Source of the DNA: Clostridia bacterium
GTDB lineage: Bacteria > Bacillota > Clostridia > Christensenellales > CAG-138
Direction of reading: 5' to 3'
Assembly (NCBI GenBank): GCA_017394835.1
Contig: JAFPXD010000007.1
Coordinates: 171,591-235,590, forward strand
Length of the DNA: 64,000 nt
The notes under the pieces were generated by a model, which made no database searches, was not told the DNA's origin, and saw only the letters and a program-made list of their open reading frames with translations. The position numbers were made by a program, and so were the translations under genes. This document shows positions 19,940 to 40,362 of the stretch, in pieces; position 1 is the stretch's first letter; each line of letters begins with the position of its first letter.

Positions 19940-20277
19940 TGAACACCTTCAGGACCGCTTACATTTACGTTCGCGACAGCTTCGCCGGGCTCCTCTCGGA
20001 GACCGACGAGGGCTATATCTTCACATACGATCCTGCCTATCTGTCCGCTCCAAATGCGTCCGCCGTGTCGCTGACGATGCCGCTGACAAAAAAGCCGTAT
20101 GTCTCGAAAACGATGTTCCCGTTCTTCGACGGGCTCGTTCCCGAAGGCTGGCTGCTCGAAGTCGTCAGCCGCAACTGGAAGCTCGATCCTCAGGACCGCT
20201 TCGGGCTGCTGCTCGTCGCCTGCCGCGACGGTATCGGCAATGTGAGCGTCAAGCCCAGATCGGAGGTGACTGAATGA
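19939..20277 (+). CDS. hipS: HipA N-terminal-subdomain protein (HipS-like)
   Basis: 112 aa: AGLLSETDEGYIFTYDPAYL..FPFFDGLVPEGW is typical of the HipA N-terminal / coupling domain encoded as a separate ORF. Confidence 0.7.
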   Translation: MNTFRTAYIYVRDSFAGLLSETDEGYIFTYDPAYLSAPNASAVSLTMPLTKKPYVSKTMFPFFDGLVPEGWLLEVVSRNWKLDPQDRFGLLLVACRDGIGNVSVKPRSEVTE

Positions 20278-21227
20278 ACTGCCTTTGCTGCGGGAAACCG
20301 CTTGAACCCAATACCGAACACGGATGGCACGACAGATGCATAAAGAAGTTCTTCGGGACCACGAAGCTTCCGCTGATCGAGCTTGACGAGGAATCGCTTT
20401 CCGTACTCGTTGAAAAGAGCACGGACAAGGGCTTTACCGTGCCGGGAGTGCAGAAGAAGCTTTCACTCCATCTCCATTCAGGCCGCGGACAGCAGCCCCG
20501 CCTTACGCTCGTGGACTATCCGACCGGCTACATACTGAAGCCTCAGGTCGAAGCCTTCACGGCGCTCCCGGAGTCCGAGCATCTTGTAATGCAGATGGCG
20601 GCGCACGTCGGGATCAAGACGGTCCCGCACGCTCTCATAAAGGCCGAGAGCGGATACGCTTTCATTACAAAGCGCGTCGATCGTATCAAGGATAAAAGCG
20701 GCATGAAAAAGCTTGCAATGGAGGACTTCTGCCAGCTGGACGAAAGGCTGACGCAGGATAAATACAAGGGCTCGTATGAGCGCTGCGCGAAGCTTATTAA
20801 GAAGTATTCGTCGATCCCGGCGCTCGATATGGCGGAGCTTTTCCTGCGGCTGGTCTTCTCCTTCGCCGTCGGCAATTCAGATATGCACCTCAAGAATTTC
20901 TCGCTCATAGAGACAGCTCCCGAAAGCGGCGTTTACGTTCTTTCTCCGGCTTACGACCTGCTCCCGGTCAATCTGGTCATGCCGGAGGATAAGGAGCAGT
21001 TCGCCCTGCTGATGAACGGCAGGAAGGCCAATCTTCACCGAAAGGACTTCCTTATCTTTGCAGATACCGCGGGCATACCCGAAAAGGCCGCGAACGATTT
21101 ACTGGGCAGCGTCGTCGCCGCGCTTCCCGGGTTTATCGCGGATGCGGAAAGCTCGCTGCTGCCGGATGACATGAAAGCGGGCTTGATAGCGCTGATGGAG
21201 GATAGGTGCGGCGCAATCAAAGCGTGA
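20274..21227 (+). CDS. hipT: HipA-family Ser/Thr kinase core (HipT-like)
   Basis: It has the N-terminal Cys motif CLCCGKPL..HDRCIKKFFG, the P-loop-like GVQKKLS, the catalytic VGNSDMHLKNFSL and the Mg-binding SPAYDLLPV. Confidence 0.8.
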   Translation: MNCLCCGKPLEPNTEHGWHDRCIKKFFGTTKLPLIELDEESLSVLVEKSTDKGFTVPGVQKKLSLHLHSGRGQQPRLTLVDYPTGYILKPQVEAFTALPESEHLVMQMAAHVGIKTVPHALIKAESGYAFITKRVDRIKDKSGMKKLAMEDFCQLDERLTQDKYKGSYERCAKLIKKYSSIPALDMAELFLRLVFSFAVGNSDMHLKNFSLIETAPESGVYVLSPAYDLLPVNLVMPEDKEQFALLMNGRKANLHRKDFLIFADTAGIPEKAANDLLGSVVAALPGFIADAESSLLPDDMKAGLIALMEDRCGAIKA

Positions 21228-22276: not shown

Positions 22277-23554
22277 ATGGCAATTTATAAACCGAGGGTG
22301 ATCGATGAGGCGATCGCTCATCGTTTGAGAAATAAAGGGGCGATACTGGTGGAAGGCGCAAAATGGTGCGGTAAAACGACCACCTGCGAACAGCATGCGG
22401 CAAGCATCCTTTATATGAGCGATCCCGACAGGGTGAGGCAAAATCTGCAGCTTGCCGATATAAGCCCGCGTTCGCTGCTTCAGGGCGAAACGCCTCGTCT
22501 TATTGACGAATGGCAGATGGCTCCGAAGCTTTGGGATGCAGTGCGTTTCGAAGCGGATCACCGTGACGGCTTCGGGCATTTCCTTTTGACCGGCTCCGCA
22601 GTCCCGGCGGATCTTGAGCAGGTGCATCATACCGGCACCGGCAGATTCGCATGGATCAGAATGAGGCCGATGAGCCTTTACGAATCCGGCGAATCCTCCG
22701 GCGCTGTCAGCCTCGGTGCGCTGTTCTCCGAAGGCGACATGCCGATTTTCGCGGAGAACACGGCAACACTTGAAGACATCGCATTTCTGATCTGCCGCGG
22801 CGGATGGCCGCAGGCAACTTTCCTTGAGGGCGAAGACGCCCTTGTGCAGTCCTTCGACTACCTTGATGCAGTTGTGAAATCCGATATCAGCCGCGTGGAC
22901 GGCGTTTCGCGCAATGAGAACCGTGCGCGTCTTTTAATGCGCTCTCTGGCAAGGCATCAGGGCACGCAGGCTCCGAACACCACCATCTGCGAGGATATCA
23001 ACGTCAGCGACGATATGGAGCTGAGCAAAGATACCGTGGTTTCATACACCAACGCGCTGAAAAAGATATTCGTTATCGAGGACTGTCCCGCATGGAGCCC
23101 GAATCTCCGATCTAAAACGGCGATTCGCACCTCCGATACCCGCTATTTCGTGGATCCTTCCATTGCAACGGCCGCTCTCGGCGTCGGTCCCGGCGACCTT
23201 TTGAACGATCTGGAGACCTGCGGCCTGTTCTTTGAAACGCTCTGCATCCGCGATCTGCGCGTTTATGCCGAGTCGATGGACGGCAGCGTGTACCATTTCC
23301 GCACCAAGGAAGGCTTGGAATGCGACGCGGTCATACATCTGCGCAACGGCAGCTACGGCCTTGTCGAGATCAAGCTCGGAGGGGATAAGCTTATCGAGGA
23401 GGGCGCGCATACGCTTAAGGCAGTTGCCGACAAGATCGACACCTCCAAGATGAAAGAACCGTCGTTCCTTATGGTGCTGACCGGAACTTCTCCCTACGCC
23501 TACAGGCGCGAGGACGGAGTTTGTGTCGTGCCGATAACGACACTAAAGAACTGA
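22277..23554 (+). CDS. AAA-type ATPase (AAA_14/DUF4143-like architecture)
   Basis: It has the Walker A VEGAKWCGKTTT and a Walker-B-like FLLTGS. The size (425 aa) and C-terminal region fit DUF4143 ATPases by recollection. Confidence 0.6.
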   Translation: MAIYKPRVIDEAIAHRLRNKGAILVEGAKWCGKTTTCEQHAASILYMSDPDRVRQNLQLADISPRSLLQGETPRLIDEWQMAPKLWDAVRFEADHRDGFGHFLLTGSAVPADLEQVHHTGTGRFAWIRMRPMSLYESGESSGAVSLGALFSEGDMPIFAENTATLEDIAFLICRGGWPQATFLEGEDALVQSFDYLDAVVKSDISRVDGVSRNENRARLLMRSLARHQGTQAPNTTICEDINVSDDMELSKDTVVSYTNALKKIFVIEDCPAWSPNLRSKTAIRTSDTRYFVDPSIATAALGVGPGDLLNDLETCGLFFETLCIRDLRVYAESMDGSVYHFRTKEGLECDAVIHLRNGSYGLVEIKLGGDKLIEEGAHTLKAVADKIDTSKMKEPSFLMVLTGTSPYAYRREDGVCVVPITTLKN

Positions 23555-23610: not shown

Positions 23611-26361
23611 ATGACACCCGAAGAAAGAGCCCGACAACTTATTGACGCTCGCCTTGAACAGTCCGGCTGGGTATTGCAGGATTTGCGCAGCGTTAATCCC
23701 ATGGCGTCGCTCGGCGTGGCGGTAAGGGAATACCCCACCAGCACCGGGCCGGTCGACTACGCCCTTTTTGTCGGCGGCAAACCGGTCGGTGTGATCGAGG
23801 CAAAGAGGGATGATCTCGGTGAAAACATCACCGTGGTCGAAGGTCAATCCGGCCGCTATGCAAACAGCACTTTCAGATACATCACAACCGATTATAATAT
23901 CCGCTTTGCGTATGAGGCGACCGGACAGATCACGCGGTTCACGGATTACAGCGATATCAAATACCGTTCCCGCCGTGTGTTTTCGTTCCACAGGCCGGAA
24001 ACTCTGCAGGCGCTCCTTTCAAAGCCCGATACGATCCGCAATAATATGAAGCGCTTCCCGGTCTTCGATACGACCGGCTTCCGCAAATGCCAGATCACGG
24101 CGATCCAAAACCTCGATGCTTCCTTTGCGGAAAACCGCCCCAAGGCGTTGGTGCAGATGGCGACCGGCGCGGGCAAGACGTTTACCGCAATCACGGCGGC
24201 ATACCGTCTTTTGAAATTCGGAAAGATGCGCCGCATACTGTTCCTCGTTGATACCAAGTCCCTTGGCGAACAGGCCGAGCGCGAGTTCCTTGCCTACACT
24301 CCGAACGACGATAATCGCTCGTTTGCCCAGCTTTACGGCGTGCGCCGCCTGAACAGCTCCTATATCCCGAACGACGTTCAGATCTGCATCAGCACAATTC
24401 AGCGTATGTATTCGATCCTGAAGGGCGAGGAAATGGACGAATCGGCGGAGGAAGAATCCCTCTTCGAGCAGAAAGGCGCAGATTCCCAGCCCGCAAAAGA
24501 GGTCGTCTATAACGAAAAGTATCCCCCGGAGTTCTTCGACTGCATAATCGTCGATGAGTGTCACCGATCTATTTACAATGTCTGGAATCAGGTGCTTGAA
24601 TACTTCGACGCCTTTATCATCGGTCTGACCGCAACGCCGGACAAGCGCACCTATGCGTTTTTCAATCAGAATATCGTCAGCGAGTATTCCCGCGAGCAGG
24701 CCATCATCGACGGCGTCAACGTCGGTGAAGACATCTTCCTGATCGAGACCGACGTCACCAGGAACGGCGCTCACATAATGAAGCAGCAGATCGAATACCG
24801 CGACCGTCTGACCCGTGCAAAACGCTGGAAGCAGATGGATGAGGATATGGATTACACCGCTTCCAACATGGATCGGGACGTGGTCAATCCAAGCCAGATC
24901 CGCACCGTTATCCGCACCTTCAAGGAGTGCCTGCCGACGCAGCTTTTCCCGCATCGTCACGAGGTGCCGAAAACGCTGATATTCGCAAAGACCGACAGTC
25001 ATGCGGACGACATCATTCAGATCGTGCGCGAGGAGTTCGGCGAGGGCAACGAGTTCTGTCAAAAGATCACCTGTCAGGCGGACCGCCCGGAGACCGTGCT
25101 CAGCGCCTTCCGCAACGATTATTATCCCCGCATAGCCGTCACCGTCGATATGATCGCCACCGGCACGGACGTCAAGCCCATCGAGTGCCTTATCTTCATG
25201 CGCGACGTTCGCAGCAAGAACTATTTCGAGCAGATGAAGGGCCGCGGTACCCGCACGCTCGGCAAGGACGATCTGCAGAAGGTCACGCCCTCCGCCACGG
25301 AGAACAAGGACCATTTCGTTATCGTGGACGCTGTCGGCGTTACCAAATCCAGAAAGACCGAGACCCGCACTCTGGAGCGCAAGCCCTCCGTCAGCATGAA
25401 GGAGCTGATGCTCAACGTGGCGATGGGCGCAAAGGACGGGAATACCCTCACTTCGCTTGCGAACCGCGTTATCCGTTTGAACAGTCAGATGACCGACAGG
25501 GAGCGCAGTGAATTCAGCTCCGCCGTCGGCAGCAGCGCGGGCGTTATAGCACAGCGGCTTCTGGACGTCTTCGATCCGGACGTCGTTTCTTTGAAGGCCG
25601 GAGTCGATCTTTCAGACGATCACGAGCCCACCGAGGACGAGCGGCGCCGCATGGACGAGGTGAAAATAGAGCTCGTCAAGGAGGCTGTGCAGCCGTTCTA
25701 TGCTCCCGAAGTCCGCGATTACATCGAAAACGTGCGCCGCAGCCATGAGCAGGTGATCGATTCCGTCAATATCGATGCCGTGCTTTTTGCGGGATTCGAT
25801 GCGGACAAGCAGGCGAATGCCGACAGGATCATAAAGACCTTCCGCGAGTTCATAGAGGAAAACAAGGACGAGATACTTGCCCTGCGCATCGTTTACAATC
25901 AGCGGTATAAGGATCGTCCCATGGCGATCGCCCGGCTCAAGGCGCTGTATGAAAAACTGAAAGCGCATAACATAACCGTTGACCGCCTGTGGGACTGCTA
26001 TGCCATCAAAAAGCCGGAGAAGGTCAGGCGGGGCACGGTTTCGCAGCTCACCGACCTTATCTCGATCATACGCTTCGAGATGGGCTATGCCGATAACCTT
26101 GCGCCCTTTGCGGACAGGGTGAACTATAACTTCATGCAGTGGACGCTGCGCCGCAACGCCGGCAGCGTGCACTTTACCGACGAGCAGATGGAGTGGCTGC
26201 GACTGATAAAGGATCATATCGCCGTATCCCTCAGCATCGAGCCGGAGGATCTGGACCTCAGCCCCTTTGACAGGAAGGGCGGCCTTGGCAGGTTCTATGA
26301 TGTGTTCGGCGCGGAGTATGAAAAGATTTTGTGGGAAATGAATGTAGAGTTGGTGGCTTAG
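23611..26361 (+). CDS. hsdR: Type I restriction enzyme R subunit (locus 1)
   Basis: It has the N-terminal RQLIDARLEQSGW nuclease-domain start, MATGAGKT (Walker A), IVDECHRS (DEAD/DECH box), QMKGRGTR (motif VI) and a long helical C-terminal domain. Confidence 0.9.
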   Translation: MTPEERARQLIDARLEQSGWVLQDLRSVNPMASLGVAVREYPTSTGPVDYALFVGGKPVGVIEAKRDDLGENITVVEGQSGRYANSTFRYITTDYNIRFAYEATGQITRFTDYSDIKYRSRRVFSFHRPETLQALLSKPDTIRNNMKRFPVFDTTGFRKCQITAIQNLDASFAENRPKALVQMATGAGKTFTAITAAYRLLKFGKMRRILFLVDTKSLGEQAEREFLAYTPNDDNRSFAQLYGVRRLNSSYIPNDVQICISTIQRMYSILKGEEMDESAEEESLFEQKGADSQPAKEVVYNEKYPPEFFDCIIVDECHRSIYNVWNQVLEYFDAFIIGLTATPDKRTYAFFNQNIVSEYSREQAIIDGVNVGEDIFLIETDVTRNGAHIMKQQIEYRDRLTRAKRWKQMDEDMDYTASNMDRDVVNPSQIRTVIRTFKECLPTQLFPHRHEVPKTLIFAKTDSHADDIIQIVREEFGEGNEFCQKITCQADRPETVLSAFRNDYYPRIAVTVDMIATGTDVKPIECLIFMRDVRSKNYFEQMKGRGTRTLGKDDLQKVTPSATENKDHFVIVDAVGVTKSRKTETRTLERKPSVSMKELMLNVAMGAKDGNTLTSLANRVIRLNSQMTDRERSEFSSAVGSSAGVIAQRLLDVFDPDVVSLKAGVDLSDDHEPTEDERRRMDEVKIELVKEAVQPFYAPEVRDYIENVRRSHEQVIDSVNIDAVLFAGFDADKQANADRIIKTFREFIEENKDEILALRIVYNQRYKDRPMAIARLKALYEKLKAHNITVDRLWDCYAIKKPEKVRRGTVSQLTDLISIIRFEMGYADNLAPFADRVNYNFMQWTLRRNAGSVHFTDEQMEWLRLIKDHIAVSLSIEPEDLDLSPFDRKGGLGRFYDVFGAEYEKILWEMNVELVA

Positions 26362-26371
26362 GAGATAGAAA

Positions 26372-27562
26372 ATGAAAATGATACGACTTGGAGATATTGC
26401 TACAATCTATAATGGTAACAGTATCAATGCCACAGTAAAAAAAGAAAAATACATGAAAAACGTTCCAGGATGGAACTACATTGGGACTAAGGATGTTGGA
26501 TTCGACGGAACAATATCATACAATACCGGAGTAATAATTCCTTATTTCGAAACCGGATTCAGAATTGCGCCTGCCGGAAGCATATTTGTTTGTTCCGAGG
26601 GTGGAAGCGCAGGCAAGAAGACTGCAATTGTTAATGAAGATGTATGCTTTGGAAACAAGTTATTTGCAATTGTAAATGACAAGGGAAAGTTTCTTCCGAA
26701 GTACCTTTTTTACTATTCAAGATTTGAGAGGTTCAGAGAACAGTTCAGGCTGTTGTCAACATCTCTCATGGGTGGCATTTCTTCAAAAAACTTTGCAGCA
26801 ATTGAGGTTCCTCTATATGATTTGCCCGATCAGGAGCGCATCGTTGCCAGGATTGAGGAAATGTTCTCCCAGCTTGACGCCGGTGTGGAAACGCTGAAGA
26901 AAACAAAAGCACAGCTTGCTGTGTATCGGCAGGCCGTGCTGAAAGAGGCGTTTGAGAATTGTATTGATAGCATCACCATGGCCAGCGTTGCTACAATGAT
27001 TGATCCGCAGCCAAGTCATAGAACACCACCTGAGTTTGAAAATGGGATTCCTTATATTGGCATTGGAGATATAGACTACACCGGAAAAACTATCCGGTTC
27101 AAAGATGCACGCAAAGTGAATCCAGTCGTGCATGAAGAACAATTGCAGCGTTATACATTGCGCGAAGGCGACTTTGTAATGGGCAAAATTGGAACCATAG
27201 GGAAGCCTTTCCGGTTGCCACTTCCGCAGAACTACACCTTATCCGCTAATGTAATTCTGATTCAACCGGATGCAGAAAGAATCAATCCCGAATACCTGTT
27301 CTGGCAGTTTTCCTCACCGTTAATCACAGAGCAGCTTATGGAAGGAAAAAACGAAACCAGTCAACCAGCGTTTGGTATTCAGAAAGCCCGACTGCTCCAG
27401 ATAAAAATGTGTTCTCCAGAGGACCAAGACAGAATTGTTTACGATATTCGAGAGAAAATCTCTGTATGCGAAAATATTGAGCAAACGGTGACTTTGTCAT
27501 TACAGCAGGCAGAAGCCATGCGGCAAAGCATTCTGAAAGAAGCATTTGAGGGGAGTTTATAA
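26372..27562 (+). CDS. hsdS: Type I R-M specificity subunit (locus 1)
   Basis: It has two target-recognition domains separated by conserved helices (..LDAGVETLKKTKAQLAVYRQAVLKEAFE.. and ..LQQAEAMRQSILKEAFEGSL). Confidence 0.9.
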   Translation: MKMIRLGDIATIYNGNSINATVKKEKYMKNVPGWNYIGTKDVGFDGTISYNTGVIIPYFETGFRIAPAGSIFVCSEGGSAGKKTAIVNEDVCFGNKLFAIVNDKGKFLPKYLFYYSRFERFREQFRLLSTSLMGGISSKNFAAIEVPLYDLPDQERIVARIEEMFSQLDAGVETLKKTKAQLAVYRQAVLKEAFENCIDSITMASVATMIDPQPSHRTPPEFENGIPYIGIGDIDYTGKTIRFKDARKVNPVVHEEQLQRYTLREGDFVMGKIGTIGKPFRLPLPQNYTLSANVILIQPDAERINPEYLFWQFSSPLITEQLMEGKNETSQPAFGIQKARLLQIKMCSPEDQDRIVYDIREKISVCENIEQTVTLSLQQAEAMRQSILKEAFEGSL

Positions 27563-27563
27563 A

Positions 27564-28283
27564 ATGATAATAAGAAAAGAAACTACATACCGCAAAAGGC
27601 TGGTTATCTCTCAAAATAGAATTATAGAGTTGGACAGTATTCTTGAAAAATACTGTGAAAGAATACGCTACAAGGCAACGACAGACCAAGGTACATCCCT
27701 CGCTTTTGAAGATCGCGATGAACTCTTGAAGTATGATAATTTTAAGAATGGAAAAACCATAAGCCTCGATGTTTCAGGTGAATCGAAGGATCGCTCGACT
27801 TCGATAGAAATCACCATAGCTCCAACATTTAAACTTAAGGACGAGACTGCTCGATGCAGATATGAGTTTTCGGACAATGATAAAGAAAGGCTGTTTGTTG
27901 ATGATTGGACAACCTTTCTTAAAAAGTGCACAGAGTATCAAATCAGCTATACTATCTGCAAAGTTGCAACATTCGTGTTTTGGCTTTCACTTGGAGTTTA
28001 TTTCCTTGTTCGATTCTTTAATACGAAGTTGAGGGATTTATCATATTATCCATTATTGTTTATACTAATGTTTTCGTTTATCAAAACTGTTACACATGAC
28101 AAAACAATATGGGATAGGGTGTTCCCTCCCGCTGTGTTCCCTTGGGGAGAAGAGAGGGAGAAAAACCTAAAAAGAATCAATATTCGCTCTCAACTGTTCT
28201 GGGCGGTAGTTATCCCAACCGCTATCAGTATCGCTTTTGAAATTGTATCCATTATCAGGATGGCGGGGACGCCAAAGCCCTAA
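27564..28283 (+). CDS. Hypothetical membrane protein embedded in R-M locus 1 (soluble N-terminal domain + 3 C-terminal TM helices)
   Basis: ATG 27564 lies 1 nt after the hsdS stop, with GAGGGGAG upstream. The hydrophobic segments are VATFVFWLSLGVYFLVRFF, YYPLLFILMFSFIKTV and LFWAVVIPTAISIAFEIVSII. Confidence 0.65.
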   Translation: MIIRKETTYRKRLVISQNRIIELDSILEKYCERIRYKATTDQGTSLAFEDRDELLKYDNFKNGKTISLDVSGESKDRSTSIEITIAPTFKLKDETARCRYEFSDNDKERLFVDDWTTFLKKCTEYQISYTICKVATFVFWLSLGVYFLVRFFNTKLRDLSYYPLLFILMFSFIKTVTHDKTIWDRVFPPAVFPWGEEREKNLKRINIRSQLFWAVVIPTAISIAFEIVSIIRMAGTPKP

Positions 28284-28342
28284 GCGATCAGCGCTGGTTT
28301 TTATAAGCCAAAGCCCATCTATATGTCATTAAGGAGAAAACG

Positions 28343-29044
28343 ATGAAAGAGTATGTAGCATACTATTTTGCGTTCATGGACCTCTTGGGGTTCAAAGAAA
28401 TTGTGAAAACAAGCACATGCGATGAAATTGCTGAGATTTTCGATGAAGCGAAAAAGAGATTTGTAATAAATCAAGAAATCGGTGATAAGAGCGTACCTGT
28501 TGTATCACCGCAAGATATTCATTACTATGTAATGTCTGACAGCGTATGTATCTTTATCAGGGATAACATTAAATCAGCGCTTCCGGTTTTGACTTGGCTC
28601 TGTCTGAATTTTCAGGTTAGAATGTTGTGTCAGAAGAGGCCGGTTTTTGTTCGCGGAAGTATCGTCCGAGGGAAAGCGTTCGAAGAGCAGAACGTCTTGT
28701 TCGGCCCTGCAATGGTAGAAGCTTACCTTAGAGCTGAGAAGCTTGCTCAATATCCCCGGATCATTATTCCTATGGATTTATGCGAAGAGATCACCGACAC
28801 GACGGATAAAGCCTTCATGAATGGATTCACACATTTAGAGCAGGATGGGTTTTTCGTAATCAATTATTTGGATTATTTTAGTTTCCATGCTTCTGCAAAA
28901 GAGCACAGAGAGGGAGTAATTAATTATGTGAATCATATGATCAATGATTCTTTAGATCAATCTGTTCGTGATAAGTATTTGTACGTGCAATTCTGGTTGG
29001 ACTACTATACCAAGCAACGGGAGGCAGAAGCACATGAGCAATGA
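28343..29044 (+). CDS. Nucleotidyl-cyclase-fold (class III cyclase-like) protein embedded in R-M locus 1
   Basis: RBS AAGGAG. The ordered motifs are YYFAFMDLLGFKEIV (FxDxxGF), YYVMSDSVCIF (second Asp) and VFVRGSIVRGKAF..LFGPAMVEAYLRAEKLAQYPRIIIP. There is no GGDEF motif. The 3' end overlaps hsdM by 11 nt. Confidence 0.55.
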   Translation: MKEYVAYYFAFMDLLGFKEIVKTSTCDEIAEIFDEAKKRFVINQEIGDKSVPVVSPQDIHYYVMSDSVCIFIRDNIKSALPVLTWLCLNFQVRMLCQKRPVFVRGSIVRGKAFEEQNVLFGPAMVEAYLRAEKLAQYPRIIIPMDLCEEITDTTDKAFMNGFTHLEQDGFFVINYLDYFSFHASAKEHREGVINYVNHMINDSLDQSVRDKYLYVQFWLDYYTKQREAEAHEQ

Positions 29045-30515
29045 AACCTCTATTATCTCAAGAGTTTGGGGGATGTGTAACCCTCTGCGTGACGACGGCG
29101 TTTCCTACGGCGATTATCTGGAGCAGCTTACCTATCTCATCTTTCTTAAAATGTCGGATGAGTATTCCAAGCCGCCGTATAACAAAAAGACCGGCATTCC
29201 CGAGGGCTGCGGCTGGACGGATATGAACACCCTCACCGGCGCGGAGTTGGAAGCGCAGTACAAAAAGACGCTTGAAACGCTTGGCGGACAGGGCGGCATA
29301 CTCGGCCAGATATTCCAAGGGGCGATCAACAAGGTCTCAAACGCCGCGATACTCTACCGCATCGTGCAGATGATCGACCGCGAAAAGTGGGTATCCATGT
29401 CCTCGGACGTAAAGGGCGAGATCTACGAGGGTCTGCTGCAGAAGAACGCCGAGGACGTGAAATCCGGCGCAGGGCAGTACTTCACGCCCCGCGCGCTGAT
29501 ACAGGCAATGGTCGCCTGCATCCGTCCGGAGCCTATGAAGACCATCGCGGATCCCTGCTGCGGCAGCGGCGGCTTCTTCCTCGCGGCGCAGGCGTTCCTT
29601 GCCGATCCCGCTAATTATTCGCTCGACCGCGATCAGAAGGAGTTTTTGAAGAACGGCACGTTCTACGGAAATGAGCTTGTCGCCTCCACCTTCAAGCTCT
29701 GCCTGATGAATCTGTATCTGCACAACATCGGCGATATTTACGGCGCCGTGCCCGTTACCCGCGGGGATTCGCTGCTGACCGATCCGGGCTACCGCGTGGA
29801 TTACGTGCTGACAAACCCGCCGTTCGGCAAGAAATCCTCCCTCACGTTCACCAACGAGGAAGGCGAGCAGGAGGAGGAAGACCTCGTCTATAACCGTCAG
29901 GATTTCTGGACGACAAGCAGCAATAAGCAGCTCAATTTCGTACAGCACATCAATACGATATTGAAAGCGACGGGCAAGGCCGCCGTAGTCGTGCCGGATA
30001 ATGTGCTGTTCGAGGGCGGCGCGGGCGAGATCGTCCGCAAAAAGCTGCTGCAGACCACCGACCTGCATACGATCCTGCGTCTGCCCACCGGCATCTTCTA
30101 CAAGCCCGGCGTAAAGGCGAACGTCATTTTCTTTGACAAGCGCCCCGCCGGCCCCGAAATGCAGACTAAGACCGTTTGGATCTATGATTTCCGCACCAAC
30201 GTCCACTTCACGCTGAAGCAGAACCCGATGCAGTATTCCGATCTGCAGGAATTCATCGCCTGCTATCACCCGGAGAACCGCTTTGAGCGCACCGAAACAT
30301 GGAGCGAGGATAATCCCGACGGCCGCTGGCGCAAGTTCGATATTGCGGAAATACTTGGGCGGGACAAGACCAGCCTCGATATCTTCTGGATCAAGGACAA
30401 ATCCCTTGCGGATCTGGATAATCTGCCTTCGCCCGACGTGCTCGCCGATGAGATCATCGAAAACCTGCAAAGCGCGCTGGAAAGCTTCCGGGAGCTGAAA
30501 GCCCAGCTGAAATAA
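29034..30515 (+). CDS. hsdM: Type I R-M DNA methyltransferase subunit (locus 1)
   Basis: The start is moved to ATG 29034, preceded by GGGAGG. SAM motif I is IADPCCGSGGFF and motif IV is LTNPPFGKK. Confidence 0.9.
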   Translation: MSNETSIISRVWGMCNPLRDDGVSYGDYLEQLTYLIFLKMSDEYSKPPYNKKTGIPEGCGWTDMNTLTGAELEAQYKKTLETLGGQGGILGQIFQGAINKVSNAAILYRIVQMIDREKWVSMSSDVKGEIYEGLLQKNAEDVKSGAGQYFTPRALIQAMVACIRPEPMKTIADPCCGSGGFFLAAQAFLADPANYSLDRDQKEFLKNGTFYGNELVASTFKLCLMNLYLHNIGDIYGAVPVTRGDSLLTDPGYRVDYVLTNPPFGKKSSLTFTNEEGEQEEEDLVYNRQDFWTTSSNKQLNFVQHINTILKATGKAAVVVPDNVLFEGGAGEIVRKKLLQTTDLHTILRLPTGIFYKPGVKANVIFFDKRPAGPEMQTKTVWIYDFRTNVHFTLKQNPMQYSDLQEFIACYHPENRFERTETWSEDNPDGRWRKFDIAEILGRDKTSLDIFWIKDKSLADLDNLPSPDVLADEIIENLQSALESFRELKAQLK

Positions 30516-30592: not shown

Positions 30593-30643
30593 AAAACAGG
30601 ATCCAAAACCGTGTGCAACCGGTGTGCAACGCATCCTGTTTTT
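30593..30643 (+). terminator. Large-loop hairpin + T-run downstream of hsdM
   Basis: The 10-bp stem aaaacaggat / atcctgtttt has a 30-nt loop containing two tandem GTGTGCAAC copies. The 3' arm runs into TTTTT. Confidence 0.4.
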
Positions 30644-30725
30644 AACGATTCTAAGTTGATCCAAGTTGAAATACTGAGCTTCAAAAAACCTTATGATCAT
30701 TGGGTTTTAGGCATTTTGGGCAAAG

Positions 30726-31204: not shown

Positions 31205-31585
31205 ATGACCGTGGATTATAAAAGGCTTTGCGAAAGCGATCAGAAGCTGATGAACCTCATTTGGGACAACGAGCCCATACCTTCGGGCGAGCTTGCAAGG
31301 CTCTGCCTCGATGAGTTCGGCTGGAAGAAATCGACCTCCTATACGATCCTCCGCAAGCTTATCGACAAGGGGCTTGCCAAAAACGAGGACGGCATGGTCT
31401 CCGCCGCCGCAAAGCGCGAGGAAGTCATGGGGCTTGAGAGCGCCGTGTTCGTGGAGCGGTCCTTCGGCGGTTCGCTGCCCGGGTTCCTCGTTTCGTTCCT
31501 CGGCGGCAGGCGCATCAGCAAAAAGGAGGCGGACGAGCTTCGCCGCCTGATCGACGAGTATGAGGAGGACGGTGACGAAGAGTGA
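31205..31585 (+). CDS. BlaI/MecI/CopY-family transcriptional repressor
   Basis: The winged-helix N-terminus is LMNLIWDNEPIPSGELARLC..WKKSTSYTILRKLIDKGLA. 126 aa. The stop overlaps the next start (GTGA). Confidence 0.85.
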   Translation: MTVDYKRLCESDQKLMNLIWDNEPIPSGELARLCLDEFGWKKSTSYTILRKLIDKGLAKNEDGMVSAAAKREEVMGLESAVFVERSFGGSLPGFLVSFLGGRRISKKEADELRRLIDEYEEDGDEE

Positions 31586-33576
31586 GCGCGCTTTTCCAAA
31601 CGGTGCTGAGGATGAGCCTCTTGGGAGCGGCGACGGTCGTGTTCGTGCTGCTCGTTCGGCTATTGCTCAGGCGCGCACCGAAGAAATGGTCATATCTCGC
31701 GTGGCTGCCCGTGCTGTTCCGGCTCGTCTGCCCCGTCGGTCCCAGGGCGGCGTTCAGCCTGTTCGGGCTGTTCACGCGCAAAACGACCGCGCCTGGCGAC
31801 GGTTGGACGGTATTCCGAGCCGCCGAATTATTCAATGCTTTCGAAGCCGTGCCGCAGACCTCCGTTCCGGCGGAGACCGCCGCGCCGTATGAAGCCGTGC
31901 CCGCCCAGCCCGCATTCGATTGGATGAAGCTGATCGCGTTCTTCTGGCTTATCGGGATGCTTGCGCTCGCCGTGATCTCCGCCGTCAAAACGGTCGAGCT
32001 TATAAAAAAACTGCGCGGAGCCCGAATGACGGGCGGCGTTTACGAATCGGCAAAGGTCGTTTCGCCCTTCGTTTTCGGCATTTTCCGCCCGCGTGTGTAT
32101 CTGCCCGCCAGTCTCGACGCGGAGACAAAGGGCATTATCATCGCCCATGAAAACAGTCATATCAGGAGGGGCGACCATATAGTAAAGCTCATTGCGTTCG
32201 CCGTGCTCTCGGTGCATTGGTTCGATCCGTTCGTCTGGCTCGCGTTCCTGCTGATGACGCGCGATATGGAGATGAGCTGCGACGAAAGCATCATCGCCCG
32301 GGATCCGAAGCTCAAGAAGCAGTACGGAAAAGCGCTTTTGAGGTTTGCCGAAACGCGGGAGAGCGGCTTCCCCTCCCCCTGCCCGGTATCGTTCGGCGAA
32401 ACGTGCGTTAAGGCCCGCATTAAAAACGTGCTGGGCTATAGGAAACCGAAAAAGCTCGTTTGCGTCATCGCCGTGCTGCTTATAATAGCCGCAGCGACCG
32501 TCTGCATCACCGATCCGGCCGTCAAGGCCGCCGCCGGTCCGGAGGATACGCCGCAGGTCCTGCCGACTCAATTGCCGGTTCCGGCTGCGACCTCATTCCC
32601 GGAGCCGACCGTATCGCCGGAGCCCGGGGAGCCGGCTGCCGCATTTGCGGATCCGCTCGTTGAAAAGGCGGTGCTGGCGCAGCTCGGGCGCGAAAGCGGT
32701 CCCGTGTATGGATCCGAGCTTTTGAGGATATCCGGGCTTGCGCTCTGTGAAGGCCGGTTCGATGATCTGTCCGACCTTGACAAGCTGCCGAATCTGTTTT
32801 CCTTATTCTTGGTCGAAGCGGAGATATCGGACACAGCCTCCCTCGCCCGGCTTTCAAATCTCAGGCACCTTGTAGCATGGGACTGCAGTTTTTCCGATAT
32901 ATCGTTCCTTGCGAGAACGACGAAGCTGACCGTGCTCCGGCTGGTCCACTGCGGCCTGACGGACGTCTCCCCGCTTGCCGGGCTAAGCGCTCTTGATGTG
33001 CTCGATCTCACCGGCAATCGGATAACGGATCTATCACCGCTTATGGGGCTCGGCGGTCTTGCACAGCTTACGATATCGTGGAACCCGTTCCCGATCGGGC
33101 AGGCGGAAGCGCTCGACGCCGCACTTGGATGCACCGTTCGGCACTCATCCGCCGCTGATGAAAACGCGATGCTTTGGCCGCTCGATATCGACGGCGACGG
33201 CAAGGATGAATACGCGGCGATCGACCGGAAAGAGCTCGCCGCGGGCAGCACTTGCGCGGTGCTGCTTGACGACGACATGAGCTATATCGCAAGCCTTTCG
33301 TCTGTCGGCGTCACACAAAACGGCGAGCGCGTGTGCATTGCCGCAGTGCATGACGAGCCCTTCGGAGACTGCATACTCATCTGCTTCATGGACAGGGAGA
33401 ACGCGCTCCCGACCTATAATCTGCTGCATGTCAGCGGCGGAATGCTCTGCTCCGTCGAGCATCAAAGCGGCGAAACGGACCGCGACCGCCTGCTGGCACT
33501 GTATAGAAAGAGTTCGATCATAGTCTGTACGGATGAACGGATAAGCGAAAGCTTATCTTCGTCTGCGAACGACTGA
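31582..33576 (+). CDS. BlaR1-type M56 peptidase signal transducer with C-terminal leucine-rich-repeat domain
   Basis: It has N-terminal TM helices, the M56 HExxH block IIAHENSHIRRGDH and a Pro-rich linker. These are followed by about 6 LRRs (LSNLRHLVAWDCSFSDISFL..LTVLRLVHCGLTDVSPLAGLSALDVLDLTGNRITDLSPL). Confidence 0.8.
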   Translation: MSALFQTVLRMSLLGAATVVFVLLVRLLLRRAPKKWSYLAWLPVLFRLVCPVGPRAAFSLFGLFTRKTTAPGDGWTVFRAAELFNAFEAVPQTSVPAETAAPYEAVPAQPAFDWMKLIAFFWLIGMLALAVISAVKTVELIKKLRGARMTGGVYESAKVVSPFVFGIFRPRVYLPASLDAETKGIIIAHENSHIRRGDHIVKLIAFAVLSVHWFDPFVWLAFLLMTRDMEMSCDESIIARDPKLKKQYGKALLRFAETRESGFPSPCPVSFGETCVKARIKNVLGYRKPKKLVCVIAVLLIIAAATVCITDPAVKAAAGPEDTPQVLPTQLPVPAATSFPEPTVSPEPGEPAAAFADPLVEKAVLAQLGRESGPVYGSELLRISGLALCEGRFDDLSDLDKLPNLFSLFLVEAEISDTASLARLSNLRHLVAWDCSFSDISFLARTTKLTVLRLVHCGLTDVSPLAGLSALDVLDLTGNRITDLSPLMGLGGLAQLTISWNPFPIGQAEALDAALGCTVRHSSAADENAMLWPLDIDGDGKDEYAAIDRKELAAGSTCAVLLDDDMSYIASLSSVGVTQNGERVCIAAVHDEPFGDCILICFMDRENALPTYNLLHVSGGMLCSVEHQSGETDRDRLLALYRKSSIIVCTDERISESLSSSAND

Positions 33577-39234: not shown

Positions 39235-40362
39235 ATGTTTGATCCGAAACAACCATATAACGAACTGCCGCTGATTTCAACACTCGAAATCGACGTTTCT
39301 ACTGGTCTTGGAAAGCTTGCAGAGGATACTAGGGTTGCAGTCGAGATTCTGAATTACGCAGTTAAAACATTGCCTGATCATAACATCCTTTTGGATACAC
39401 TCGCGCTCCAAGAAGCACGGGCCAGCAGTAATATCGAAAACATAGTAACAACAAATGATGATCTGTATCGGGGCGTCGTCTTTGAAGACTTTACGGCGGA
39501 GGCAAAAGAAGTCAGCTGCTATAAAGATGCTTTGTTTGCCGGTTATACCCGGATGCTGGATAAAGGCCTAATCTCAACCAGTGATATCGAAGCAATCAAT
39601 GCGCCGGTGAATCATAAACAACCTGGGATCCGGACGAACCTTCCGAATTTCAATGACCTTACCAGGATAGAGAATCGCAAATCTAATGGAGAGAGTGAGA
39701 TAATCTACACGCCGCCGCATGGCATTGATCTCCTTCACAGATTGCTAATTGATATGTTGGACTTCGTTTATGATGATGACACATACTCTCTTCATCCACT
39801 GATAAAAATAGCTTTAGCCCACTATCAATTTGAAAGCATCCACCCGTTCCGGGATGGAAATGGCAGAACTGGGCGTATTTTGAATATCCTCTTCCTTTGT
39901 CAAAAAGGTTATCTGGATTCGCCAATCCTATATGCCAGTTCTTACATTATCAGAAATAAAAATCTCTATTACGATCTTTTGCGAGTATCCAAGGAAACGG
40001 AAAAATACGAGCCCATCGTAGAATTTATGCTTCGCTCGTTCAAGGAAACCGCCGAAGAGACATTGAGAATTGTCGAAAGCATACGGGCGCTGATCACGCA
40101 GTATTCGGACAAGGAATACCTCTCGACGCTAAAAGGTCAGATCGAACCGCTGCAAAACACGGTCGAGGCAATCTTCAAAAAGGTCTATGTCCGGGTTGCG
40201 GATCTTGTGGAACTGGGCATCCACCGGCAGACAGCCGCAACTTATCTTGACCAGTTCGTTGACCAGGGCCTACTGAGCAAAGAGCGTGTTGGCCGGGATA
40301 ACATCTATAAAAACATCAAACTGCTTGAGCTGTTTGATTACGATAGTGAGGAAACGAAATGA
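39235..40362 (+). CDS. Fic-family protein (AMPylase-type, class II auto-inhibited)
   Basis: The canonical active site is HPFRDGNGRTGR. The N-terminal inhibitory motif SSNIEN matches (S/T)xxxE(G/N). There is a C-terminal winged-helix-like tail. The stop overlaps the hsdM start (ATGA). Confidence 0.9.
   Translation: MFDPKQPYNELPLISTLEIDVSTGLGKLAEDTRVAVEILNYAVKTLPDHNILLDTLALQEARASSNIENIVTTNDDLYRGVVFEDFTAEAKEVSCYKDALFAGYTRMLDKGLISTSDIEAINAPVNHKQPGIRTNLPNFNDLTRIENRKSNGESEIIYTPPHGIDLLHRLLIDMLDFVYDDDTYSLHPLIKIALAHYQFESIHPFRDGNGRTGRILNILFLCQKGYLDSPILYASSYIIRNKNLYYDLLRVSKETEKYEPIVEFMLRSFKETAEETLRIVESIRALITQYSDKEYLSTLKGQIEPLQNTVEAIFKKVYVRVADLVELGIHRQTAATYLDQFVDQGLLSKERVGRDNIYKNIKLLELFDYDSEETK

Follow-up and report, generated by a model that had tools for sequence, protein, structure and literature searches.

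The type I restriction-modification (R-M) operon in the window analysed here, a stretch of 64,000 nucleotides from contig JAFPXD010000007.1 of a Clostridia bacterium, carries two extra genes, ORF-A and ORF-B, between hsdS and hsdM. The arrangement raises the question of whether the two genes function together and what ORF-B, the second of them, does. A first-pass annotation had read ORF-B as a signal cyclase and ORF-A as its dedicated membrane-disrupting effector, the two forming a non-canonical Pycsar-like abortive infection system. The results described here lead to a different answer. ORF-B is probably a solo, non-canonical enzyme with a cyclase fold, carried as putative defence-type cargo in an exchange hotspot between hsdS and hsdM, with ORF-A as a separate passenger.

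An AlphaFold2 (AF2) model of ORF-B, built on an alignment of 40 homologues, was obtained with a pLDDT of 88.3 and a pTM of 0.88. The order of strands and helices is that of a cyclase homology domain (CHD), with an extra beta-hairpin at residues 43-52 and a helical extension at the C-terminus. A Foldseek search of the PDB with this model returned 45 matches at E<=1e-3 (E 6e-6 to 9e-4, probability 1.00, target-normalised TM-score up to 0.67), every one of which was the catalytic domain of a class III adenylyl or guanylyl cyclase (AC/GC). The matches included sGC, RhoGC, Rv1264, Cya2, CyaC, Ma1120, sAC and mammalian AC, as well as the Pycsar uridylate cyclase 8jsz (AnPycC). A search of BFVD placed cyclase-domain proteins of giant viruses first and GGDEF proteins among the weaker matches. 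ORF-B is confidently predicted to adopt the class III nucleotidyl-cyclase (CHD/palm) fold, in agreement with the fold that had been proposed from its motifs.

ORF-B itself matched no model of Pfam, PADLOC or NCBIfam at E<=1, PF00211 and PycC included, and stayed below the Pfam gathering threshold. Sequence comparisons of its relatives were weak but consistent with the cyclase fold. Among 65 diverse members of the ORF-B family, PF00211 gave sub-threshold matches in eight (best E 0.0014), PADLOC PycC gave a weak match in one (E about 0.007), and the Pfam models for mCpol, GGDEF and Cas10 matched none. A profile of the 65 members compared with PDB sequences gave two matches only, both to guanylyl cyclases (E 0.29 and 2.1), in which the beta1 motif was aligned as YVAFLDiLGFK / FSDIVGFT and D13 was paired with the Asp of FSDIVGFT. 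The sole library match for either ORF-A or ORF-B was that of ORF-B to phrog_23933 of the PHROGs, an entry of unknown function.

The family to which ORF-B belongs was recovered in two ways. A word-indexed search gave 40 close homologues at 49-91% identity, and an exhaustive profile search gave 7,836 representatives of clusters with E<=1e-3, of which 2,658 had E<=1e-10. The members are mostly free-standing proteins of 225-300 aa whose source records carry the name 'hypothetical protein' or none, and no precomputed Pfam domains. Judged from these searches, the family is very large and unannotated, with no name and no Pfam, PADLOC or NCBIfam model. Copies were present in 34 plasmids, and no copy was found by tblastn of ORF-B against the sequenced phages of INPHARED. 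No description of the family was found in a literature search; the 'cyclase' reported for DefensePredictor is a CBASS-attached diadenylate cyclase.

Conservation was assessed in an alignment of 332 family members. D13, D66, R104 and G105 were each conserved at 99%, followed by G16, F17, S65, G110, G121 and P138 (98%), R139 (97%), K18 and A127 (95%) and D168 and K211 (94%). D13, D66, R104-G105, G110 and G121 were also among the invariant positions when the 40 close homologues were aligned. The two Asp landmarks named in the first-pass annotation are thereby borne out, as is the R104-G105 of its RxG motif. Since D13, D66 and R104 are among the most conserved positions, the metal dyad and the Arg of beta4 appear to be under the strongest constraint. 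D66 and R104 are presumably the equivalents of D440 and R484 of AC, their placement in the secondary structure itself being taken from the AF2 model. Shared with class III AC/GC (PF00211) are the beta-alpha-alpha-beta-beta-alpha-beta core, a beta1 motif of the FxDxxGF type, another Asp located in the beta2-beta3 hairpin and, where beta4 starts, the Arg that binds phosphate in that class. In contrast, the family falls below the Pfam threshold, has no conserved Asn/Arg pair on alpha4 and shows no recognisable residues for base specificity, and ORF-B is a small stand-alone protein with no regulatory or sensor domain, of a kind found on mobile or defence loci. At position 126, where the canonical Asn is expected, E (26%), D (25%), K (16%) and N (10%) were found, and at position 130, that of the canonical Arg, L (49%), M (16%) and R (12%). 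ORF-B itself has E126 and R130. The 'AxR' motif and the substitution of Glu for Asn, both noted previously, are therefore present in the protein but characterise only its own clade and not the family.

The loss of the canonical Asn/Arg pair throughout the family, the new invariant residues K18, R139, D168 and K211, the extra hairpin and the helical C-terminal extension would also fit a palm/CHD scaffold with other chemistry or none, such as a nucleotidyltransferase, an oligonucleotide synthase, a nucleoside triphosphate (NTP) pyrophosphatase or a nucleotide-sensing pseudo-cyclase. The sub-threshold scores of the cyclase sequence models and the presence of GGDEF proteins among the weaker fold matches point in the same direction. 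This explanation is nevertheless considered unlikely, since the top structural matches were all class III cyclases rather than GGDEF or Cas10 proteins, no mCpol or GGDEF match was obtained with Pfam in the 65 members, and the metal dyad and beta4 Arg are the most conserved positions, which argues for catalysis and not for a pseudo-enzyme.

Three members of ~475 aa (P0177, P0216 and P0222) are tandem fusions of two B domains, in which the C-terminal copy keeps all motifs and the N-terminal copy has lost D66 (FYNCL), R104 (FCGS) and G16. Asymmetric degeneration of one copy is seen in C1/C2 of the cyclases and in sGC alpha/beta, and the pseudo-heterodimeric fusions parallel C1/C2. That one copy has degenerated speaks for a dimer arranged head-to-tail around a shared active site, and we infer that the family works in this manner. 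Two separate B paralogues also stand in tandem in a single operon elsewhere (L031 5972-6835 and the adjoining B gene). ORF-B would most likely act as a head-to-tail homodimer on an NTP, using the two-metal centre of D13 and D66 and R104 together with the family-specific K18, R139, D168 and K211, and would release pyrophosphate together with a nucleotide that is cyclic or modified in another way.

Whether ORF-A belongs to ORF-B was judged from the occurrence of the two genes. ORF-A was found in four independent lineages, in every one of which it starts 1 nt after hsdS. It is followed by ORF-B in the lineage of the window, which is represented by 18 contigs with identical ORF-A that amount to one population. 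In the remaining three lineages, all of them devoid of ORF-B, it is followed by Mrr_cat and a 137-aa protein (P0042), by hsdM directly (P0043), or by an unrelated 204-aa protein with one transmembrane (TM) helix (P0044/45). A homologue of ORF-A was present at none of 77 B-family loci from species-representative genomes, drawn from the 80 best tblastn matches to ORF-B. The closest relative of ORF-B (P0001, 91% identical) has the same 11-nt overlap with hsdM, but the gene before it encodes an unrelated protein of 343 aa with five TM helices. When the window was compared by blastn with loci L089 and L090, homology began at exactly 28343, the ATG of ORF-B, and the break therefore marks a recombination junction between ORF-A and ORF-B. 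Neither gene occupied the slot between hsdS and hsdM in any of 74 operons chosen solely by the similarity of HsdM (82-93% identical). These results show that ORF-A and ORF-B are separate cassettes and not a dedicated cyclase and effector pair; the functional pair of the first-pass annotation did not withstand the examination of co-conservation.

The same comparisons identified the hsdS-hsdM junction of this operon family as a cassette-exchange hotspot. The DNA identity of hsdR was 96% to both L018 and L089 up to 26360-26364. Against L018, an identity of 96-97% extended to 26364 and homology resumed at 29049 (97% in hsdM), with only two short islands of hsdS aligning in between (about 26826-26955 and 27455-27566). 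The GC content was 0.37-0.46 over 26.2-29.0 kb, a region comprising hsdS (0.39-0.46), ORF-A and ORF-B, versus 0.55-0.60 in hsdR and hsdM, and the edges of this drop coincide with the homology breakpoints at 26364 and 29049. In the 74 operons the slot was empty in 18, held a member of the 204-aa family with one TM helix in 43, and contained assorted singletons in the rest. In the operons with an embedded B gene, HsdM and HsdR were 68-98% identical to those of the window and the B proteins only 28-36%. The breakpoints, the GC drop, the varied contents of the slot and the discordant occurrence of ORF-A and ORF-B are the grounds for a hotspot in which the two are separate cassettes.

Two further cargo types were observed in this slot. 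The 204-aa family (L007 8761-9375; L093 3440-4042; 43 of the 74 loci, among L092-L171) is by far the commonest, and has one N-terminal TM helix and a beta-rich C-terminal domain with no Pfam match, an arrangement loosely recalling effectors composed of a TM segment and a beta domain. A two-gene cassette that encodes a multi-TM protein of ~190-224 aa and a basic peptide of 58-65 aa occurs with B in L090 (4906-5759) and without B in L142 (1470-2220), and represents another independent cargo module.

It could be supposed that B cyclases use any adjoining membrane protein as an interchangeable TM effector, the candidate partners being ORF-A in the window, the 343-aa protein with five TM helices in L089 and a 224-aa TM protein in L090. 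All three hsd-embedded members of the closest clade of ORF-B do adjoin TM proteins, and these are mutually unrelated. However, about 60% of the operons without B also have a TM protein in the slot (43 of the 74 with the 204-aa family), and because they are this common where B is absent, three such neighbours out of three are unremarkable. Moreover, the cassette of L090 also occurs without B in L142, no recurrent TM partner was found for any of the 13 other hsd-embedded B genes or among the tightly linked neighbours of free-standing B, and no nucleotide-binding domain could be recognised in any of these TM proteins. A modular pairing of this type is regarded as improbable. The pairing of B with whichever TM protein adjoins it was rejected on the grounds that such proteins are equally frequent in slots that lack B.

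The genomic company of the family was examined at the 77 loci. The only recurrent neighbours were hsdM (14 loci), hsdS (13) and hsdR (7). B was embedded between hsdS and hsdM of one backbone family at 13 of the 77 loci. At a locus from Bacteroidota (L075 4234-8916) the gene order was the opposite, hsdM-91aa-ORF6N-like-B-hsdS, with B overlapping hsdS by 4 nt; the type I system is only about 24% identical to that of the window and represents a second type I family. At least 14 of the 77 loci thus have B embedded in a type I R-M operon. Locus L072 from Methanobacterium had been taken for an hsd operon from its gene sizes, which was ruled out by a Pfam assignment of the neighbour to SIR2_2, and it was taken off the embedded list. 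Clustering at >=40% identity divides the embedded B genes among at least eight sub-clusters, five of which also hold free-standing members, and several of the embedded genes have a free-standing gene as nearest relative. Such interleaving points to repeated capture or exchange, and the B family appears to have entered the hsdS-hsdM slot repeatedly. The suggestion that an accessory gene hitch-hikes in a type I R-M operon therefore stands, with a position like that of prrC.

Among 38 tightly linked neighbours of B other than hsd genes, no Pfam family occurred in more than two cases and no PF00027 protein was found. Defence-type singletons among the 38 were Mrr_cat, PDDEXK_4, DUF4238, RhuM, Fic, HEPN_AbiU2, TIR_2, Vsr and PDC-S02/S05/S23/S26. 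Free-standing B copies adjoin AbiH and AAA_21+HNH, others AbiGi/AbiGii, and others again Nmad2/Nmad3/WYL and Vsr, with GmrSD also among the neighbours. B adjoins the SIR2_2 protein in L072, a DNA methyltransferase and SIR2 on a plasmid of B. thuringiensis, and patatin/endonuclease/AAA and AbiEii on a plasmid of Rhizobium. Within the 77-locus sample, the family has no conserved partner gene. In three contigs (L002 1-234, L003 2-604, L004 3-563) the ORF-B homologue P0020 starts 27 nt after the end of a gene whose product has a HipA-like C-terminus, and the window encodes a kinase with a HipA_C domain (20274-21227) ~2 kb upstream of its R-M operon; the occurrence of HipA-like proteins near ORF-B genes may be a coincidence or may indicate a second recurrent neighbour.

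A role of ORF-B outside defence, either in housekeeping second-messenger signalling or in the regulation of R-M through restriction alleviation or control of hsd expression, could be drawn from the relatives located among housekeeping or metal-resistance genes and from the translational coupling to hsdM. It is judged highly improbable given that the distribution of B is patchy and plasmid-borne, it turns over quickly compared with the hsd backbone and has been captured into the slot repeatedly, defence genes are frequent neighbours, and most operons with the same backbone function without B. As for the two-gene Pycsar-like model of the first-pass annotation, the two genes adjoin each other in the same direction and no terminator separates them, ORF-B has the predicted cyclase fold, ORF-A is a membrane protein and their order is constant over the 18 contigs, all of one population, yet the discordant distribution of the two genes, the unrelated protein and homology break ahead of the 91%-identical relative, and the failure to find a CNBD or other nucleotide-binding domain in ORF-A (Pfam E<=1, fold search) leave it scarcely credible.

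To our knowledge, every known form of immunity based on nucleotide cyclases (Pycsar, CBASS, type III CRISPR, Panoptes) combines a signal enzyme with a linked receptor-effector. Pycsar makes cCMP or cUMP and protects against phage. Pycsar, as reportedly described by Tal et al. in 2021, consists of the pyrimidine cyclase PycC and a PycTM or PycTIR effector. Its components are a dimeric class III cyclase with two metal-binding Asp residues and an effector with a cyclic-nucleotide-binding domain (CNBD) fused to TM or TIR (PMC11224242). ORF-B resembles this system in the class III fold (8jsz being matched), the conserved Asp pair and the probable dimer, and its family in the defence contexts and in the one relative with a weak PADLOC PycC match. 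It differs in that no CNBD effector is adjacent or co-conserved at its loci, ORF-B itself matches no PycC model, and the two Asp residues are spaced by 53 rather than 44 residues because of the inserted hairpin. It further has its own invariant K18, R139, D168 and K211, a helical C-terminal extension and the form of a single-gene module. The family therefore agrees with the definition of Pycsar in fold and Asp dyad and departs from it in effector and sequence models. Panoptes comprises mCpol, which is Cas10-like with a GGDD motif, and 2TM-beta (PMC12657230), and offers an earlier example of defence with a cyclase that is constitutively active. The locus in the window shares with it a minimal palm-domain nucleotide cyclase adjoining a small membrane protein, whereas the hairpin motif of ORF-B is SDS rather than GGDD, its fold matches are class III rather than Cas10, and ORF-A has the reverse layout (soluble N-terminus and C-terminal TM helices) and is not co-conserved with B.

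The position of ORF-B is best compared with that of PrrC, which is almost exclusively embedded in type I RM (Payne et al., 10.1101/2024.01.29.577857). ORF-B, like PrrC/RloC, lies between hsd genes with which it is predicted to be co-transcribed, and is absent from most operons with the same backbone; by analogy, the position suggests a back-up role to restriction. The proteins differ, a CHD/palm domain being opposed to an ABC ATPase with a HEPN-like anticodon nuclease, and no match to PrrC or RloC was obtained with Pfam or PADLOC. PrrC is a latent toxin that the Hsd complex restrains until anti-restriction factors of a phage release it. Within the B family the hsd-embedded genes are a minority, and what ORF-B shares with PrrC/RloC is genomic position only. 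No cyclase candidate is listed in the preprint on embedded defence genes (Payne et al., 10.1101/2024.01.29.577857).

ORF-B would be co-transcribed and translationally coupled with hsdM, and would provide a second-line function that rides with the restriction system and may back it up from a PrrC-like position. Since there is no dedicated effector gene, the output is expected to come from the chemistry of ORF-B itself or from an unlinked receptor. Speculatively, it may consist of NTP consumption, a toxic, protective or decoy nucleotide, or a signal to such a receptor. Several observations weigh against ORF-B as solo defence cargo. No sequence-library model was significant for ORF-B itself, and the alpha4 Asn/Arg transition-state pair is not conserved across the 332 members, for which reason the chemistry may not be cyclisation. 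Some free-standing B copies are found among housekeeping or metal-resistance genes, and more than 80% of the family in the genome sample is not hsd-linked, indicating that a physical or functional coupling to Hsd of the PrrC type is not required. A single hsd backbone that has spread horizontally accounts for most of the embedded cases, and the proportion embedded, 18%, is not an unbiased frequency, the loci being the best tblastn matches to ORF-B.

A broader reading is possible, though doubtful: the ORF-B family as a whole could be a new and widespread single-protein immune module, a dimeric non-canonical cyclase-fold enzyme with no dedicated effector. Such a module might protect by chemistry of its own on nucleotides, depleting NTP or making a toxic or decoy nucleotide, or it might guard type I restriction enzymes against phage anti-restriction, following the logic of PrrC with wholly different chemistry; both are speculative, and its nucleotide product may be new to bacterial immunity. 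Should the family prove defensive, an effector-less cyclase would be added to the immune repertoire, together with a second, chemically unrelated case of the 'embedded back-up' arrangement of PrrC. The invariant D13, D66, R104, K18, R139, D168 and K211 are ready targets for mutagenesis. The hsdS-hsdM junction, as a compositionally distinct hotspot, can be mined for further candidates, among them ORF-A and the 204-aa family with one TM helix, which is abundant.

ORF-A belongs to a small family, only six clusters of which were found, at 52-56% identity. The loop VFPPAxFPWGEE between the second and third hydrophobic helices is invariant across the clusters. The AF2 model was good over the N-terminal alpha/beta domain (residues ~1-122) and poor over the membrane part, in which helices were placed at 125-153, 161-186 and 197-234; the hydrophobic segments averaged over the family were 127-156, 159-178 and 210-236. 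Both confirm the previously suggested layout of a soluble N-terminus and three C-terminal hydrophobic helices. No match was obtained with Pfam (E<=1, PF00027 included), PADLOC, NCBIfam or PHROG, and none in plasmids. The fold search of the PDB gave nothing significant (best E 8e-3, TM-score <= 0.23). The earlier remark that ORF-A has no convincing cNMP-binding cassette is upheld, no CNBD having been found by Pfam at E<=1 or by the fold search. Scattered matches of residues 1-122 (window 27564-27930) to CYTH (triphosphate-tunnel) and START/Bet v1-like folds were non-significant (E 0.008-0.1, TM-score about 0.2) and are not relied on. The results indicate that ORF-A, a membrane protein of rare occurrence, is linked to hsdS and separate from ORF-B. 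It would be translationally coupled to hsdS and would not serve as the receptor of ORF-B.

The gene order and coordinates of the operon hold as first annotated, with the Hsd subunits confirmed by Pfam and PADLOC (Table 1). The ATG of ORF-A (27564) lies 1 nt past the stop of hsdS (27560-27562), and the ATG of hsdM (29034) is overlapped by 11 nt by ORF-B, the stop of which is at 29042-29044; both junctions were verified on the sequence. The AAGGAG Shine-Dalgarno is located 8 nt upstream of the ORF-B ATG. ORF-A and ORF-B are real genes, as both have homologues. The single terminator-like site on the + strand of the operon, at 30621, follows hsdM, and the arrangement hsdR-hsdS-ORF-A-ORF-B-hsdM therefore fits one transcript.

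Table 1. Features of the type I R-M operon and its cargo, in window coordinates.
Feature	Position	Strand	Description
hsdR	23611..26361	+	916 aa; Pfam ResIII, EcoEI_R_C, HSDR_N; PADLOC REase_I; conserved operon backbone
Variable low-GC segment (hsdS and cargo)	26365..29048	+	recombination breakpoints in hsdR 3' end and hsdM 5' end
hsdS	26372..27562	+	396 aa; Pfam Methylase_S; PADLOC Specificity_I; start of low-GC variable segment
ORF-A	27564..28283	+	239 aa; N-terminal alpha/beta domain, then three C-terminal TM helices
Spacer	28284..28342	+	59 nt; holds the AAGGAG Shine-Dalgarno of ORF-B; cassette junction at its end
ORF-B	28343..29044	+	233 aa; predicted divergent class III cyclase-homology-domain protein; helical C-terminal extension
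ORF-B key codons	D13 28379-28381; D66 28538-28540; R104 28652-28654; R139 28757-28759; K211 28973-28975	+	
hsdM	29034..30515	+	493 aa; Pfam N6_Mtase, HsdM_N; PADLOC MTase_I 3.6e-183; conserved backbone
Terminator-like hairpin and T-run	30621..30645	+	after hsdM; likely operon end

A Mob_Pre relaxase and TnpV adjoin related hsd operons (L007 1362-2928; L175 7836-7997), which suggests that the hsd operon travels on a mobilisable element; a TnpV fragment is also present 3' of hsdM in the population to which the window belongs. Many relatives contain, between hsdR and hsdS, an ORF of 116-125 aa that is absent from the window (L007 6483-6833, L018 4848-5225, L021, L065, L184 2814-3176) and encodes a coiled-coil followed by a CxxC...CxxC Zn-ribbon-like end. 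Directly upstream of hsdR in the window (22277-23554) is a PADLOC PDC-S01 candidate, an AAA_14 + DUF4143 ATPase (E 1.5e-59), which is likewise found in L175. Downstream of the operon are a BlaI/BlaR1-type pair, the sensor of which has leucine-rich repeats, and a SoFic-like Fic protein (31205-33576 and 39235-40362).

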